From a bacterium (GTDB lineage: Bacteria; Zhuqueibacterota; Zhuqueibacteria; Oceanimicrobiales; Oceanimicrobiaceae), in NCBI GenBank assembly GCA_037446635.1, contig JBBIIG010000021.1, positions 26,508 through 65,161 of the forward strand: DNA of 38,654 nucleotides. The letters run 5' to 3'. Position numbers: made by a program. This document shows positions 27,001 to 38,654 of the stretch, in pieces. How positions within the stretch are numbered: the stretch's first letter is position 1; the number at the start of each line of letters is the position of its first letter.

Positions 27001-30000
27001 GTTCTGGTGGCGCATCAACGCCTGGTCGGAAATCGCGGCGATGATTGCGCCGCTGATCATTTATCCGCTGGCGAAATCCTACGGGCTGCAAGCGCCCATC
27101 ACGCTTTACCCCGTAGTTTTGGGGACAACAGTAGTTTGGCTGGCGGCAACGTTCATTACGAAACCGGTGCCGCGCGAAGTGCTGCTGAAATTCTATCAAA
27201 AAGTTCACCCTGGTGGAGTCGGCTGGAAGGCCATTGCGCAACAACTGCCCGGCGTGCCGGGCGACTCCGGTTTTGGACGATTGTTCGTGAGCTGGCTGTG
27301 CGGCGTGGCGCTCATTTACAGCGCGCTGTTTGGGATTGGCAAAGTACTTTTCGGAGAATTTTTGTCCGCCCTGCTTTTCTTCGCGATCGCGGCGGCGGCG
27401 GTGTTCGTCATTCAAAAAAATTTGCAAAAGATCAATTTGATAAAATAGCGAAAAACCGGGGTGTCAAGCTTTTAGCTTGATCGATCTTGAAGTTTAGCAC
27501 TCCTAAGTTTTTCGCAATCCTATTGAGAGGCACGCATGATTAACAAATCTCGTCTGCGAATCAACTTTGTCCCGACACTTTTCATCGCTCTGTTATTTGC
27601 AAGAGTCTCGTCAGCCCAACCGGATCTGATGCCCTTGCCGGCCAGCCTCGAATGGCAAGAGGGCAAATTCCGGCTCGCTGAAAATTTTAAAATCGCCGTA
27701 ACTGGCGCTGCGGACGATCGCCTTTACGCCGGCGCCACGCGCGCGCTGCGCCGCCTCGCTGGACGTACCGGACTTTTTCTACCGCAGGATTTCATCCGCC
27801 GTGATGTCAAAGTTGATTCCGCCGGACTAATCATTAATTGTGAGCGCCCCGGTCAAATGAAATTGGGCGAAGACGAAACGTACGCGCTGATTGTCTCACC
27901 AACGCAAATCAATTTAAATGCGAAAACCGATCTCGGCGCGCTGCGCGGACTCGAAACCTTTTTGCAATTGCTTTCGGTGGATGAGCAGGGCTACTATTTT
28001 CCCGCGGTGAAAATCGCTGACGGTCCGCGTTTCCCGTGGCGCGGATTGATGATCGACGCCTCCCGCCACTTTATGCCGGTGGAGGTGATCAAGCGCAATC
28101 TCGATGGCATGGCCGCAGTCAAACTCAACGTGCTGCACTGGCACCTGAGCGACGATCAGGGTTTCCGCGTCGAAAGCAAAGTGTGGCCGAAATTGCACGA
28201 GATCGGATCGGACGGCCTATACTACACACAAGCGCAAATCAAAGAAGTCATCGAGTACGCGGCGGAGCGCGGCATTCGGGTGGTGCCGGAATTTGATGTT
28301 CCCGGACACGCCACTTCGTGGGTCGCGGCGTATCCGGAACTGGGCAGCGCGCCGGGGCCATATCAAGTCGAACGCCAGTGGGGCATCTTTTATCCGGTGC
28401 TCAATCCCGTCAACGATTTCACCTACAAATTTCTCGATAAATTTTTTGGCGAAATGGCGGAGCTGTTTCCCGATCCCTATTTCCACATCGGCGGCGATGA
28501 AATCGAACACGGCGATTACCACGAGGCCAAACACTGGAACGAGAATCCGGAAATTCAGGAGTTCAAAAAGAAAAAAAACATCAAAGACAATTTCGCGCTG
28601 CAAGCGTACTTCAACAGCCACGTTTTGAAAATTCTCACCAGGCACAAAAAAATCATGGTGGGCTGGGACGAAATCCTGCACGAGTCGATGCCCACCAACA
28701 TCGTCATCCAGTCGTGGCGCGGACGAGATGCGATGGTGAAGGCAGCGCAGGCGGGGTATCAGAGCATTCTTTCCAACGGCTACTACATCGATTTGATCCA
28801 GCCGACGGACTTTCATTATCTCAACGATCCGCTGCCGGCCGACACCCAGCTGACGCCGGAGCAGCAGCAAAAAATTCTCGGCGGCGAAGCCACCATGTGG
28901 GCAGAGTACGTGAGTCCAGAAACGGTCGATTCGCGCATCTGGCCGCGCACCGCGGCGATCGCCGAGCGCTTCTGGTCGCCGCGTGATGTGAACGATGTCG
29001 ATGGCATGTATCGCCGGCTGGAGACCATCAGTTTCCAATTGGAGGAACACGGACTCATGCACGAGAAAAATTACGCGATGATGCTGCGCCGGCTCACCCG
29101 CAATCATGATATCACCGCGCTGAAGAATTTCGTCGATGTCATCGAGCCGGTGAAAATTTACAATCGCGGTCGCCTTAAACCGCACGTGCAGCACTCGCCG
29201 CTGACGCGCGTGGTGGACGCCGCGCGCCCGGATGCAAAGGTCGCGCGCGAATTCCGCCGTGACGTGGACGCTTTTCTCGGCGCGGGCGGGGATCACAGCG
29301 ATCTCTCCGCCGCCATGCGCAGCCGGCTGGAATTGTGGCAGCGCAATCACGGCGAGGTGAAAAAGATCATCGTGCTCTCGCCGGTGCTGGCGGAGATCGA
29401 AACGCTGTCCGAAGACTTGATGAAAATTTCAGAAATTGGATTGCAGGCGTTGGATAGGATCGCAGCCGGCCAAAAAGCAGATCAAGCATGGCTTGATCAA
29501 TCCAAGTCAATTTTAGAGAAAGCCAAAGAGCCGCGCGGACAAACGGAATTAATGGTGGTTTCAGCGATTGAAAAAATGGTCGAGGAGGCGGGTAAGCTTG
29601 GAGGCGGGAGATAAGCTAAACTCTGTCAGGGTTAAGACCCTGACAGAGTTGGCTTTGGTGCGAATCGAACAATAAACTCCATCATCTAAATTTAGTTTAG
29701 TCCTTTTCAAAAAAAAGGAGAGCAATGATGAAACTCGGAAAAATCGCCTTGACAGCGATGAGCGTCCTGCTTTCATTGGTTGTCGCCGCCACGTCAGTGC
29801 AGGCCGGCACCAAAGGCAAAATCGCCGGCAAGATTTCCAGCAAGCAAACCGGTGAAGCGTTACCAGGGGCCAACGTTTTCATAGTCGGAACCACGTATGG
29901 CGCCGCCAGCGATTTGAACGGCTTATTCACCATTCTTAACGTTCCGCCGGGCGTGTACTCGCTGCAGGCGTCGGTGCTCGGCTATGCGACGGTAACGGTC

Positions 30001-36000: not shown

Positions 36001-38654
36001 GTGAGCTTCGGTTTCGGCGTTACCAGCTTCGGCTTGCAGGTGGATTATGCCTATACCCCGTTTGGCGTCTTTGATAAGGTGCAGCGAGTAACCGTTCGTT
36101 TTTCAAAGTGACTAGGAAATTCAAATTTTGGAGATAGCCCCATGAATTCCTCAAGAATTAAACGAGTCGGCCGCGCGGCAATTTGGCTCGTCATCGCGAG
36201 TTTGATGGCCTGCAATTACGAGGACCCAGCCGTCATTTTCGATCCGAACGCCACCGGCGCGCCGACGCCGGTGATTACCGCCCTCGATCCCAGCGACGAG
36301 GCCGTCGCCGGCGTAACTCGCATTCGAATCCTCGGCAGCAATTTCGCGCCGGCGGTCGATCAGAATTTCGTCTATTTCGGCGCGGCTCGAGGCGCCGTTC
36401 TCGCAGCTTCGACCACCGAGCTAACCGTGATCCCGCCGCTTCTCATCGCGGATTCCTTAACGGTGCGGGTCGAGGTGCAGAATGCCTTTCTGCCGGCGGT
36501 TTATGCCCAACCGTATCGCTTAACGCCCATCGCCACGCCATACGGGAATCTGGGACGAGTGCGGGTGATCACGGTGGATGGCGATGAAAACCTGTTTGCC
36601 AGTAACAGCGGCGGTTCGGTCTTTAAATTAGCTCGCGATCTGACTGTGACACGATACGGCTCCTTGAGCTTTCCCACCGCTTCAACCATGCGGATTGGGC
36701 CGGAGGGATTTTTATACGTGCAGCGCAATGAGAATATCCGCCTCTACCGCATCCCCCCCGGCGGCGGCGCGGACGCCGAGTTCGTGCGCTTTCCCCAGGC
36801 CGTTTCATTCTTCGATTTCGACGCCAACGGCAACATTTTCGCCGGCGGCGAACGGGGATTATTTGTGCTGACGCCCGGCGGCGCGCCGCGCGCCGTGGGC
36901 CAGTACCAAACAACGGTGATTCAAGCGGTGCGTGTTTTTAACGGCTATGTTTATGTTGCAACCGGCAATCCTGCTCCCGGCGTCTCGCGTAATCAAATCC
37001 TATCCGCAGACGGCAGCCTCGGCGATAATGAGCTGGTTTTTGATTGGAGCAGCGCCAGCGGCTTCTCCACCTTTCAAATCAGCGACATCACCTTTGCTGA
37101 AGATGGCGACCTTTACATCGCCGCCGCGGCCAAAGCCGCCGATCCCATTCTTGTCGTTCATCCGGACGCGAGTACAGAAATCCTCTACCCGGGCGTGCTC
37201 AGCTTCGTCGTCGCCGATTTCGTTTGGGGCAACGACGAATTTCTCTATATCAACCACGACAATAACTCGGGCGTCAGCCGCATCGCCATGGGCAAACGCG
37301 GCGCGCCCTATCACGGTCGTGAATAAACTCATTCAAACACCCGGAAAGGAGGGATGCCCGCGAGGGAGTGAAAAAAAGCTATTTCGAGCGAGAGCTTGAA
37401 CGGGGCTCTCAAACCATTCACCAATTTTAATCAAGGGAGGCAAACAATGTTATCGAGACGCGTGTTCACAATTTTTTTGGTGTTGATCGCCGCGGCGGTT
37501 TTTGCCCAAAACAACGCGCCGGTATCCGTGCCGTTTATGGTTAAAGCGCCAACCCCGCCAACCATCGACGCAGACCTGGGCGATTGGAATTTGGTTTATT
37601 GGATCAACTTAAACAAAGCCACCGAGCCGGACGGCGGCCGCACCGAAGTTAATTTCCCAACTGACGGCACCGACGCGGATCTCTCCGGCCAGATCGCGAT
37701 GCAATGGGATGATGACAATCTCTATTTTGCCGCGGTGGTTAACGATGACACCTCGGGTGCGGCCGGCAGCGCCTGGTTCGGGGATGGCATCGAAATTTAC
37801 CTCTCGAACGTTCCCCTGGCTCCGGATGCGCTCCATGGCCCGGACCACGGAACGGTATTTTTTGACGAAGCCAACGGCGATTATGAAGTGCATCTCTTCA
37901 TCCGCTACGACGCCGACGCCGACACCTCCGCGCTGATCGTTTTTATGCCCGCGGTCCTCGGCCAAGTCAAATCGCCCGACGTGGTGATCGATGGCGAGCT
38001 CAACGCCGATGAAAACGGTTATTTCCTCGAAGGCCGAATCGCCTGGAGCGCCATCGCCTCGCCCACCACCGGCAACACCTTTAACTTCAGCGGTGGAGAG
38101 CGCGTGGCGGCCACCTGGAGCTTGATCGATATCGATATCGATGAATCCTCTGAGCGCTACGCCGCCCTGCAGTTTGTTGTTGACCCAACCCGCGGTCCCA
38201 ACGGCAACCCGGGCGGGCCGATTTGGGAAGTTTTGGATGTGCGCTCTGATGCCGCTGCCATCGCCGCCGCACAGGATACGATTTTCACCTACCTCAATGA
38301 ACCGTTTATGAAACGGCCCGATGGCCCGGTCGTCATCGACGCCGATCTCTCCGAATGGAACTTTGCATTTTGGGTTGATATGAACAAGCTCACTGAGCCG
38401 GATGGCGGACGCACCGAGGTCAATTTCCCAACCGACGGCACCGATGCGGATTTGTCCGGACGGGAAGCGCTGATGTGGGACGAAGACTTTCTCTATTTTG
38501 CCGCCGAAGTTAAGGACGACACGGCCGGCGCCGCCGGCAGCGCCTGGTTCGGGGACGGCATCGAGATTTACTTATCGAACGTGGACATCGGCGCGGGCAC
38601 GCTGCACGGCGCCCGGGCGTTAGGCGCGCCCTTCCTGGATGAGGCCAACGGCGG

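Follow-up and report, generated by a model that had tools for sequence, protein, structure and literature searches.

The window analyzed here, a stretch of 38,654 nucleotides from a genome of the phylum Zhuqueibacterota, raises the question of how a TonB-dependent transporter (TBDT) in a sugar operon without SusD could be supplied with its glycan. Its core is a triad of three co-directional ORFs on the + strand, recovered where the initial annotation had placed it. They encode a TBDT, a family-less secreted middle protein of 713 aa, named MID here, and a PorV/PorQ-family barrel. The window triad sits inside an N-acetylglucosamine operon with the following features:

20652..20679, + strand: sigma-70-like promoter, 11/12 consensus (consensus match only), ahead of the co-directional run 20682-38654
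20678..20702, no strand: candidate operator 1, palindromic, probably a ROK-repressor site
20682..21857, + strand: ROK-family HTH regulator (NagC/Mlc-like)
21988..22012, no strand: candidate operator 2, palindromic
22042..23046, + strand: ROK-family sugar kinase
23043..25382, + strand: glucosamine-6-phosphate deaminase-like protein, NagB-like long form (NF002557 213 bits, below the cut-off of 384)
25559..27448, + strand: sodium:solute symporter (SSS; PF00474)
27536..29614, + strand: GH20 beta-N-acetylhexosaminidase (PF00728, 333 bits)
29725..32889, + strand: TBDT, 1054 aa (CarboxypepD_reg and Plug)
32926..35067, + strand: MID, 713 aa, family-less by Pfam (E<=0.01)
35104..36111, + strand: PorV/PorQ-family outer-membrane barrel, 335 aa (NF033709 PorV_fam 191 bits, cut-off 90)
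36142..37326, + strand: lipoprotein carrying an IPT/TIG domain and a beta-propeller (Cys24 unchanged across 44 aligned rows)
37396..38654, + strand: secreted protein carrying two CBM9-like domains, truncated at the contig end

In profile searches the window showed a PUL-like content (GH20, CBM9, SSS, two ROK proteins and the NagB-like protein). Full-length relatives of the CBM9-like protein carry a type A T9SS tail at the C-terminus. In three relatives the palindromic motif, probably the site of the ROK repressor, is located just ahead of the TBDT; as the operator pattern was derived from the two window sites, a shuffle statistic on it is circular. A terminator scan of the window gave chance level only.

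The window TBDT consists of an N-terminal extension, a plug and a barrel of 22 strands, whose large extracellular loops L1 (~90 aa) and L11 (~120 aa) are conserved; L1 is better conserved than any other part of the protein (0.72). It reached 59.9 bits on TIGR04056 (cut-off 368) and matched neither the TIGR04056 nor the TIGR04057 signature. The remaining triad TBDTs reached 48-95 bits on TIGR04056 versus 590 for the control, the true SusC of the lone SusC/SusD pair of this genome, which was confirmed on contig C67. Judged by these scores, the window TBDT is not a SusC. The label "Oar-type" from the initial annotation was rejected for this TBDT as well, because the Oar-type barrel domain PF25183 is unmatched in the window TBDT; matches in C26, C3 and C1 were weak, and positive scores of 162-189 bits came from two unrelated TBDTs.

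Seven loci of this genome harbor the arrangement, as previously claimed: complete triads occur on contigs C21 (the window), C1, C26, C3 and C6, and partial ones at contig edges on C2 (MID and barrel) and C8 (TBDT and a truncated MID with 82 N). The three MID groups described before were reproduced by N-terminal HMMs ({C21,C3}; {C1,C8,C26,C2}; C6 apart), groups 1 and 2 showing modest homology outside the tail (E=1.5e-4, probability 52%). Their designation as polysaccharide loci is borne out by the neighbors on C21 (GH20), C1 (GH9, LacI, ABC), C26 (GH13, LacI, SBP), C3 (GH106, GH39-like), C2 (GH9) and C8 (two GH3, CBM9), with the exception of C6, where no CAZyme was located among the three genes behind the triad. 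Loci with unrelated sets of CAZymes share the same MID architecture.

The arrangement is conserved across several FCB phyla, as a sample of 60 related loci shows. The TBDT is positioned directly upstream of MID in 56/57 testable loci and the barrel downstream in 55/55, and the order is kept in KSB1, Calditrichota, Ignavibacteriota, Neomarinimicrobiota, WOR-3 and Delongbacteria. None of the 188 scanned neighbors in the 60 loci belongs to the SusD family. By raw count, 15/24 loci of at least 21 kb contain a CAZyme or CBM and 9/24 contain none; GH18, GH20, CE4, GH94, GH2, NamZ and NagB are recurrent in related loci. Together with the triads of this genome, these loci support the earlier claim of a SusD-less, conserved, carbohydrate-linked cassette. 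No description of this cassette was found in the literature, nor any experiment with one of its members, and the Caldithrix genome paper mentions neither SusC, SusD, PorV nor type IX.

MID is predicted to comprise a signal peptide (assigned by eye), a beta-supersandwich (residues 32-422), two linker helices, an FN3 domain (483-597) and a T9SS-like C-terminal domain (598-713). This agrees with the domain order proposed initially, and is based on the structure model and on fold searches whose results were filled by supersandwich and FN3 matches and cover these domains, the tail apart. Pfam assigned no family to MID at E<=0.01, with a weak PorZ-tail match (E=0.004). A PDB sequence search returned no match, a profile search only FN3-type matches, and the ESM Atlas only unnamed clusters for the N-terminal regions of the C21 and C6 MIDs. 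The 1077 homologue clusters reported before were found again, the best 120 of these being 51-86% identical and none of the 120 carrying a Pfam domain. With Z 17-19, the supersandwich best matches the N-terminal, non-catalytic domains of GH94/GH15/GH116; mutarotases and lyases (Z 12-14) have the same fold, as does YidC. The fold named by the initial annotation is thus correct, but the label "carbohydrate-binding" was overstated, since GH N-terminal domains and YidC share it.

The module of supersandwich and FN3 was also found in 35 long proteins, most of them with a canonical type A tail, and therefore it is a T9SS cargo elsewhere. Free type A forms are fused to beta-helix and BNR domains. One long stand-alone module gene viewed in context has no PorV behind it, and a search of the phylum for such long forms returned triad members instead. 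The stand-alone secreted forms show that the module can work without a TBDT. These fusions, the mutarotases and lyases of the same fold and the conserved residues E54, E56, R59, Q67, D69, H310, D312, H369 and H374 in the alignment would suit a MID that works at the surface as an enzyme of a yet undescribed family (an epimerase, lyase or hydrolase) and trims glycans for the TBDT, in the manner of SusG and not of SusD. However, the top matches are non-catalytic domains, the (alpha/alpha)6 barrel is missing and one architecture is maintained across loci with unrelated CAZymes, so that this explanation appears improbable. The narrower assignment of MID as a GH94-like enzyme was rejected because the model contains only FN3 and tail beyond the linker helices and no catalytic (alpha/alpha)6 barrel, which in GH94/GH65/GH15/GH116 enzymes comes behind the N-terminal supersandwich.

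The tail strands (606-711) form a type A-like C-terminal beta-sandwich of ~7 strands in the model. The last-strand lysine K708, at the position where type A cargo has a lysine in contact with PorV, is kept in at least 90% of 108 rows, and the tail is better conserved than the MID body (mean identity 63% vs 50%). The type A models TIGR04183 and PF18962 did not match the window MID, 23.1 bits being obtained for the C6 MID only, and the type B model CHU_C gave no match on the window MID. The MIDs weakly match the tail regions of PorZ and PorU. A tail HMM built on MID scored 44-184 bits for the six complete MIDs and at most 25 for all other tails of the genome. All six have a PorV paralogue less than 200 bp away (6/6), so that in this genome the special tail class always stands ahead of a PorV paralogue. 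As far as alignments and profiles can tell, the MID tail is a distinct conserved T9SS tail class.

The window barrel is a paralogue of the general PorV encoded on C5. In the barrel tree, the triad barrels form a cluster separate from the general PorV, with weak clade support (62/89), and their groups parallel those of the MIDs. The barrel had been called private, but it is shared in tandem arrays: six arrays contain a TBDT-MID pair without its own barrel, and two have two MIDs per barrel. Across 43 triads, MID N-terminal divergence tracks the TBDT barrel (partial r 0.65, vs 0.03 for PorV), a correlation confounded by common ancestry. The triad barrel belongs to NF033709; the single match of the genome to PF11751, tested for a PorP/SprF carrier, is located on C38.

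The genome possesses the T9SS core proteins SprA, PorU (866 bits) and PorV (242 bits, cut-off 250) and 115 type A tails, and T9SS is thus available for export as assumed before. GldM and GldN had no match in this 97% complete genome, in a search whose controls were equally silent. The latter result, the failure of TIGR04183 and the type B model to match the tail, and the PorV-family barrels of Bacteroides thetaiotaomicron, where a SprA search found no match, would be compatible with a MID unrelated to T9SS. MID would then reside in the periplasm or be loosely secreted, with a FlgD-like Ig domain for a tail, and only co-regulation would link it to the barrel, a FadL-like channel. This is very improbable, however, given SprA, PorU and the 115 type A tails, the joint occurrence of tail class and barrel in 6/6 cases, the matches to PorZ and PorU tail regions, and the canonical tails that the module bears in other proteins.

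A lipoprotein is encoded downstream of the triad in 44/50 testable loci, and a second one between MID and barrel in 19 loci. A propeller of the lipoprotein type is fused to a MID supersandwich in P0151, P0152 and P0154 (98-118 bits; hhalign 99.3%), and in locus L037 a TIG-propeller protein is paired with a MID variant with no TBDT upstream. The other triads of this genome lack a TIG-propeller lipoprotein; therefore, the triad is the common unit. On sequence grounds the lipoprotein at 36142-37326, overlooked in the initial annotation, is a conserved fourth cassette member in the subfamily of the window. The statement that capture occurs "not with a SusD lipoprotein" is accordingly right about SusD, but leaves out the one or two lipoproteins that this subfamily has.

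MID might be exported and anchored as a scaffold that organizes transporter, barrel and lipoproteins, with capture by the TIG-propeller lipoprotein or by L1/L11 of the TBDT. The frequency of both lipoproteins, the propeller fusions, L037 and the strong conservation of L1 argue for such a role. However, the other triads of this genome manage without the lipoprotein, and in the alignment the MID sandwich retains W38, W73, W89, Y231, W250, H310 and H369, conserved aromatic and polar residues that may be surface-exposed. We regard the scaffold explanation as rather unlikely.

We favor, with modest confidence, a T9SS-exported MID that remains attached to a dedicated PorV-like carrier and acts as the partner of the TBDT in glycan capture. 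This model builds on the observed gene order, folds, tail class, T9SS core genes and SusD absence, while export, sugar binding and contacts are suggested by gene context and fold. The signal peptide would take MID across the inner membrane and the T9SS translocon SprA across the outer one, and by analogy the MID tail would be taken up by the adjoining PorV-family barrel and not by the general PorV. Left uncleaved, the tail could keep MID on the surface, comparable to type B cargo on PorP/SprF and PorZ on PorQ. The supersandwich would then join its cognate TBDT and bind or funnel oligosaccharides into it. This is the weakest step. A complex prediction of TBDT fragments 234-470 and 858-1054 with MID 33-596 scored 0.00, with controls that did not fold either, and speaks neither for nor against it. 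In this subfamily the TIG-propeller lipoprotein may assist. From the context, the window substrate would be a glycan that contains GlcNAc (fragments of chitin or peptidoglycan, or N-glycans); GH20, the symporter, the kinase and the deaminase would complete its use under control of the ROK repressor.

The sequence data point to an undescribed mode of cell-surface sugar capture in many little-studied Bacteroides-related bacteria. A broader proposal, put forward tentatively and with some doubt, is that the main glycan importer of KSB1, Calditrichota, Ignavibacteriota, Rhodothermota, Marinimicrobia and other FCB phyla is a SusD-independent utilisome. Here a third T9SS tail class would place the supersandwich as a lid on a dedicated PorV-family barrel, itself a permanent part of the TBDT complex, via a T9SS without the known Gld/Por motor. 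This may be the older design, displaced by SusC/SusD in Bacteroidia. PUL prediction depends on susC/susD pairs and thus misses the glycan loci of entire phyla that abound in sediments, aquifers, hot springs and the deep ocean. For these loci the triad offers a marker, as 142/145 genomes of the phylum have a MID-profile match vs 57 with SusD (SprA, 143). If true, the proposal adds a third T9SS tail/carrier class, establishes a direct link between protein secretion and TonB uptake, and leads one to ask how a T9SS without detectable GldM/GldN is energized. Cultured Rhodothermales hold a homologue in a xylan-responsive region, and it is therefore testable: by locus tag, the Roseithermus group-2 homologue AWN76_014005 lies among LacI, ABC permease and GH130 genes that are induced on xylan.

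The cassette resembles SusC/SusD PULs in its TBDT with N-terminal extension, a fixed downstream partner gene and surface lipoproteins, and in the combination of CAZymes, inner-membrane transporter and sugar regulator at one locus. In contrast, it lacks SusD, and its partner MID, a beta protein that is not a lipoprotein, carries a T9SS-like tail and is accompanied by a barrel gene. Separately exported partners that catch the substrate for a TBDT occur in HasR-HasA (its structure, PDB 3csl, came up in the TBDT analysis), in TbpA-TbpB with Slam, a dedicated barrel encoded at its locus, and in BtuB-BtuG. These serve metal or cofactor uptake with different folds and export systems, and to our knowledge none uses T9SS parts. 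The atypical PUL chu_1276-1280 of Cytophaga hutchinsonii, as described in PMC12016534, is required for polysaccharide use and likewise combines a SusD-free TBDT-like barrel with surface glycan-binding proteins. Its partners are SGBP-B-like CBM tandems and PorV is unmentioned in that paper; its description does not support identity of the two systems. Type B T9SS cargo is encoded beside a dedicated PorP/SprF carrier and stays bound to it, i.e. anchored, with some cross-talk between pairs; known cargoes are adhesins and not TBDT partners (PMC9143113, PMC12618676, PMC12635249). The cassette shares the adjoining cargo and carrier genes (6/6 in this genome, 55/55 in relatives), whereas its carrier is of the PorV/PorQ family and the MID tail is not type B. 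In the Porphyromonas attachment complex, PorZ-PorQ and PorU-PorV have uncleaved longer tails with PorV-family barrel partners (PMC11285876), and MID tails weakly match these tail regions. However, the extra hairpin of the window MID precedes the last strand instead of following strand 5, and PorZ-PorQ and PorU-PorV are secretion machinery with one pair per genome, whereas the pairing in the cassette is multiplied and tied to nutrient transporters.

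The closest named homologues of the genome (4.64 Mb, 97% complete) carrying the window (C21:26508-65161) come from candidate division KSB1. From 20682 to the contig end every gene lies on the + strand, and gene calls and domain matches gave the following run:

first, from 20682, +: ROK regulator
second, +: ROK kinase
third, +: NagB-like deaminase
fourth, +: sodium symporter
fifth, +: GH20
29725-32889, +: TonB-dependent transporter (TBDT)
32926-35067, +: MID, the 713-aa middle protein (supersandwich, FN3, T9SS-like tail)
35104-36111, +: PorV/PorQ-family barrel
36142-37326, +: TIG and propeller lipoprotein
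last, after the lipoprotein, +: CBM9 protein

Short intergenic inverted repeats lie ahead of the TBDT gene (29624-29645) and past the deaminase gene (25395-25480). The - strand encodes a PabB-PabC-type fusion with chorismate-binding and class IV aminotransferase domains (8743-10641) and a 3031-aa fusion (11421-20516) of a GlcD-like FAD-linked oxidase, 4Fe-4S domains, a glutamate-synthase FMN domain, a GATase-like part and GXGXG repeats.

The TBDT-MID-barrel cassette is a real and widespread PUL variant built with T9SS parts. As the initial annotation had stated, BLAST and neighbourhood listing located five complete triads in the genome and two cut by contig edges, and its figure of 1077 homologue clusters was borne out. 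A MID profile built on 108 homologues matched at least 660 stretches; the 60 loci among the matches listed belong to KSB1, Calditrichota, Ignavibacteriota, Neomarinimicrobiota, WOR-3, Stahlbacteria, Delongbacteria and records labelled Bacteroidota. In six-frame HMM scans of the listed loci, a TBDT gene lay immediately 5' of MID in 56 of the 57 that extended far enough. All 55 loci that could be assessed for the barrel had a PorV-family gene no more than 1.2 kb downstream, and 44 of 50 had the lipoprotein downstream at up to 3.2 kb; in four others it follows a second tandem pair. Another lipoprotein of about 230 aa lies between MID and barrel in 19 listed loci. The earlier description of the cassette as SusD-less holds: no SusD family was detected by Pfam among the 188 neighbours scanned in the 60 loci (187 of the 193 unlabelled ones of at least 280 aa, and one more). 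Among 145 genomes of the phylum, 142 matched the MID profile (weak matches may be tail-only), 143 SprA and 57 SusD; omission of genomes G139 and G142, both marked as unpublished, whose DNA may be included in the 60 loci from this same collection, gave 140, 141 and 55 of 143. Related genomes and loci do not count as independent.

The barrel had been called private to each triad. Against this in its strict sense, six tandem arrays contain a second TBDT-MID pair without a barrel and two loci have two MIDs per barrel. Loci L071 and L072 carry TBDT-MID-MID-barrel-TBDT-MID-lipoprotein arrays next to an amidase-like gene, with three MIDs and one barrel. The genome harbors 16 PorV-family genes above the cut-off. 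About eight more paralogues, judged by eye, sit 3' of a gene with a non-canonical tail, which indicates that in this genome the pairing of a cargo with its own barrel extends beyond the triads. Paralogues directly after large genes with non-canonical T9SS-like tails, lacking a TBDT, occur on contigs C62, C2 (28004-37647), C15 (55789-62051), C42, C14 (55456-59161), C93, C53 and C25; several carry long C-terminal extensions (up to 1155 aa). A tree built from 24 barrels puts the 13 that belong to triads on one side of a single branch, apart from the general PorV encoded on C5, a split that is not firmly supported (62/89; shuffled mean 8.2 changes). The window barrel pairs with that of C3 (98/94), mirroring their MIDs.

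SprA, PorU, the general PorV and 115 matches to type A tails, one of the T9SS C-terminal tail classes, were found in the genome. GldM and GldN, of the known T9SS energy chain, gave no match in the whole genome, the search controls being equally silent. The six complete MIDs reached 44-184 bits with an HMM of the MID tail, no other tail exceeded 25 bits, and a PorV paralogue lies within 200 bp of all six. MID is most conserved in its tail across 43 triads (63% mean identity, versus 50% in the body), which is what a retained and bound tail would lead one to expect. Residue K708 aligns with the lysine of type A tails that PorV contacts according to the available part of one study (PMC10994853). 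Uncleaved tails are described in the accessible text of another as kept by PorU and PorZ (PMC11285876). It is probable that MID is exported and retained on the neighbouring barrel.

The AlphaFold2 model of MID (108 rows) reached pLDDT 92 and pTM 0.87. Its N-terminal part resembles the supersandwich and linker helices of GH94, GH116, GH15 and GH65 (Z 17-19; rmsd 2.9-4.0 over 233-287 residues; identity 7-12%), followed by mutarotases, lyases and YidC (Z 12-14). The catalytic barrel of these GH enzymes is absent from the model, which has FN3 and a seven-to-nine-strand tail instead. Thus the supersandwich, annotated as carbohydrate-binding, is predicted to have a carbohydrate-associated fold, but binding does not follow from the fold. 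MID groups 1 (C21, C3) and 2 (C1, C8, C26, C2) aligned N-terminally over 107 columns (E=1.5e-4, probability 52%), whereas group 3 (C6) is linked to the others by tail and gene order only. Group 2 is larger than group 1, with 4063 clusters among 8000 scored. SurA-like rotamase genes adjoin three group-2 triads on C1, C26 and C8 (L062:10827-12737, L063:17541-19241, L067:7130-8671) and perhaps encode dedicated chaperones.

Another 35 proteins, 1249-1630 aa long, contain the supersandwich-FN3 module together with beta-helix or BNR domains, and most of them end in a canonical type A tail. These proteins favour export of the module by the T9SS and a function of its own, independent of a TBDT. Three of the 35 additionally contain the lipoprotein propeller (98-118 bits; hhalign 99.3%), and these fusions suggest that MID and lipoprotein act together. 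No TIG-propeller lipoprotein accompanies the remaining triads of the genome. At L037:7621-11998 a MID variant that lacks an upstream TBDT follows a TIG-propeller protein of 754 aa; at the contig end this variant carries, in place of the usual tail, a motif that we take to be dockerin- or EF-hand-like.

The transporter was modelled as a 22-strand barrel (pLDDT 88). Its designation as Oar-type was not sustained, as the Oar barrel model went unmatched; it scored far under the SusC cut-off and is structurally no nearer to SusC than to iron/PQQ receptors. In SusC, loops L7 and L8 carry SusD. In the model of the window TBDT these are short, and L1, the most conserved region, and L11 are large. Across 43 triads, MID N-terminal distances correlated with those of the TBDT barrel given PorV (partial r 0.65) and hardly with PorV given TBDT (0.03), which is suggestive of MID-TBDT pairing, although confounded by ancestry. 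That MID is the capturing partner of the TBDT is plausible and slightly favoured.

A CAZyme or CBM is present in 25 of the 60 listed loci and 15 of the 24 of at least 21 kb (counts without a background rate); of the other nine long loci, three have LacI only and six neither. From the recurring families (GH18, GH20, CE4, GH94, exo-glucosaminidase-type GH2, NamZ, GHL10 and NagB), GlcNAc glycans are the predicted substrate of this subfamily. A palindrome present twice in the window has 10 copies in 0.94 Mb of loci versus 7 in the 4.64-Mb genome, and three copies lie within 130 bp upstream of a TBDT; the ROK repressor thus probably controls the cassette through this candidate operator. Other triads of the genome neighbour amylase, GH9, GH106 and GH3 genes. 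No CAZyme was found among the genes scanned beside the C6 triad, which is followed by a GWxTD-domain protein (L065:9774-11183) and a second TBDT. The group-2 homologue AWN76_014005 of Roseithermus sacchariphilus is placed by locus tag among LacI, permeases and GH130. On beechwood xylan, the accessible data of PMC7409140 give, for these neighbours, fold changes of 2.49 for LacI 013990 and 4.0 and 3.9 for GH130 014035 and 014055, with permeases 014015 and 014025 up; the homologue itself goes unnamed in the main text. Most such loci are probably glycan importers.

The variant is apparently undescribed. No description of a TBDT-cargo-PorV cassette was found in the literature searched, outside of which most subscription papers lie; in the text available, 'PorQ family' came up either in an unrelated context or in a figure key on Porphyromonas heme loci. 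Among SusD-less loci in the published text available, chu_1276-1280 (PMC12016534) comes nearest. According to the accessible portions of three studies, type B cargo remains on a dedicated PorP/SprF carrier encoded alongside (PMC9143113, PMC12618676, PMC12635249). The cassette would work like SusC/SusD combined with such a type B cargo-carrier pair, yet it is a member of neither.
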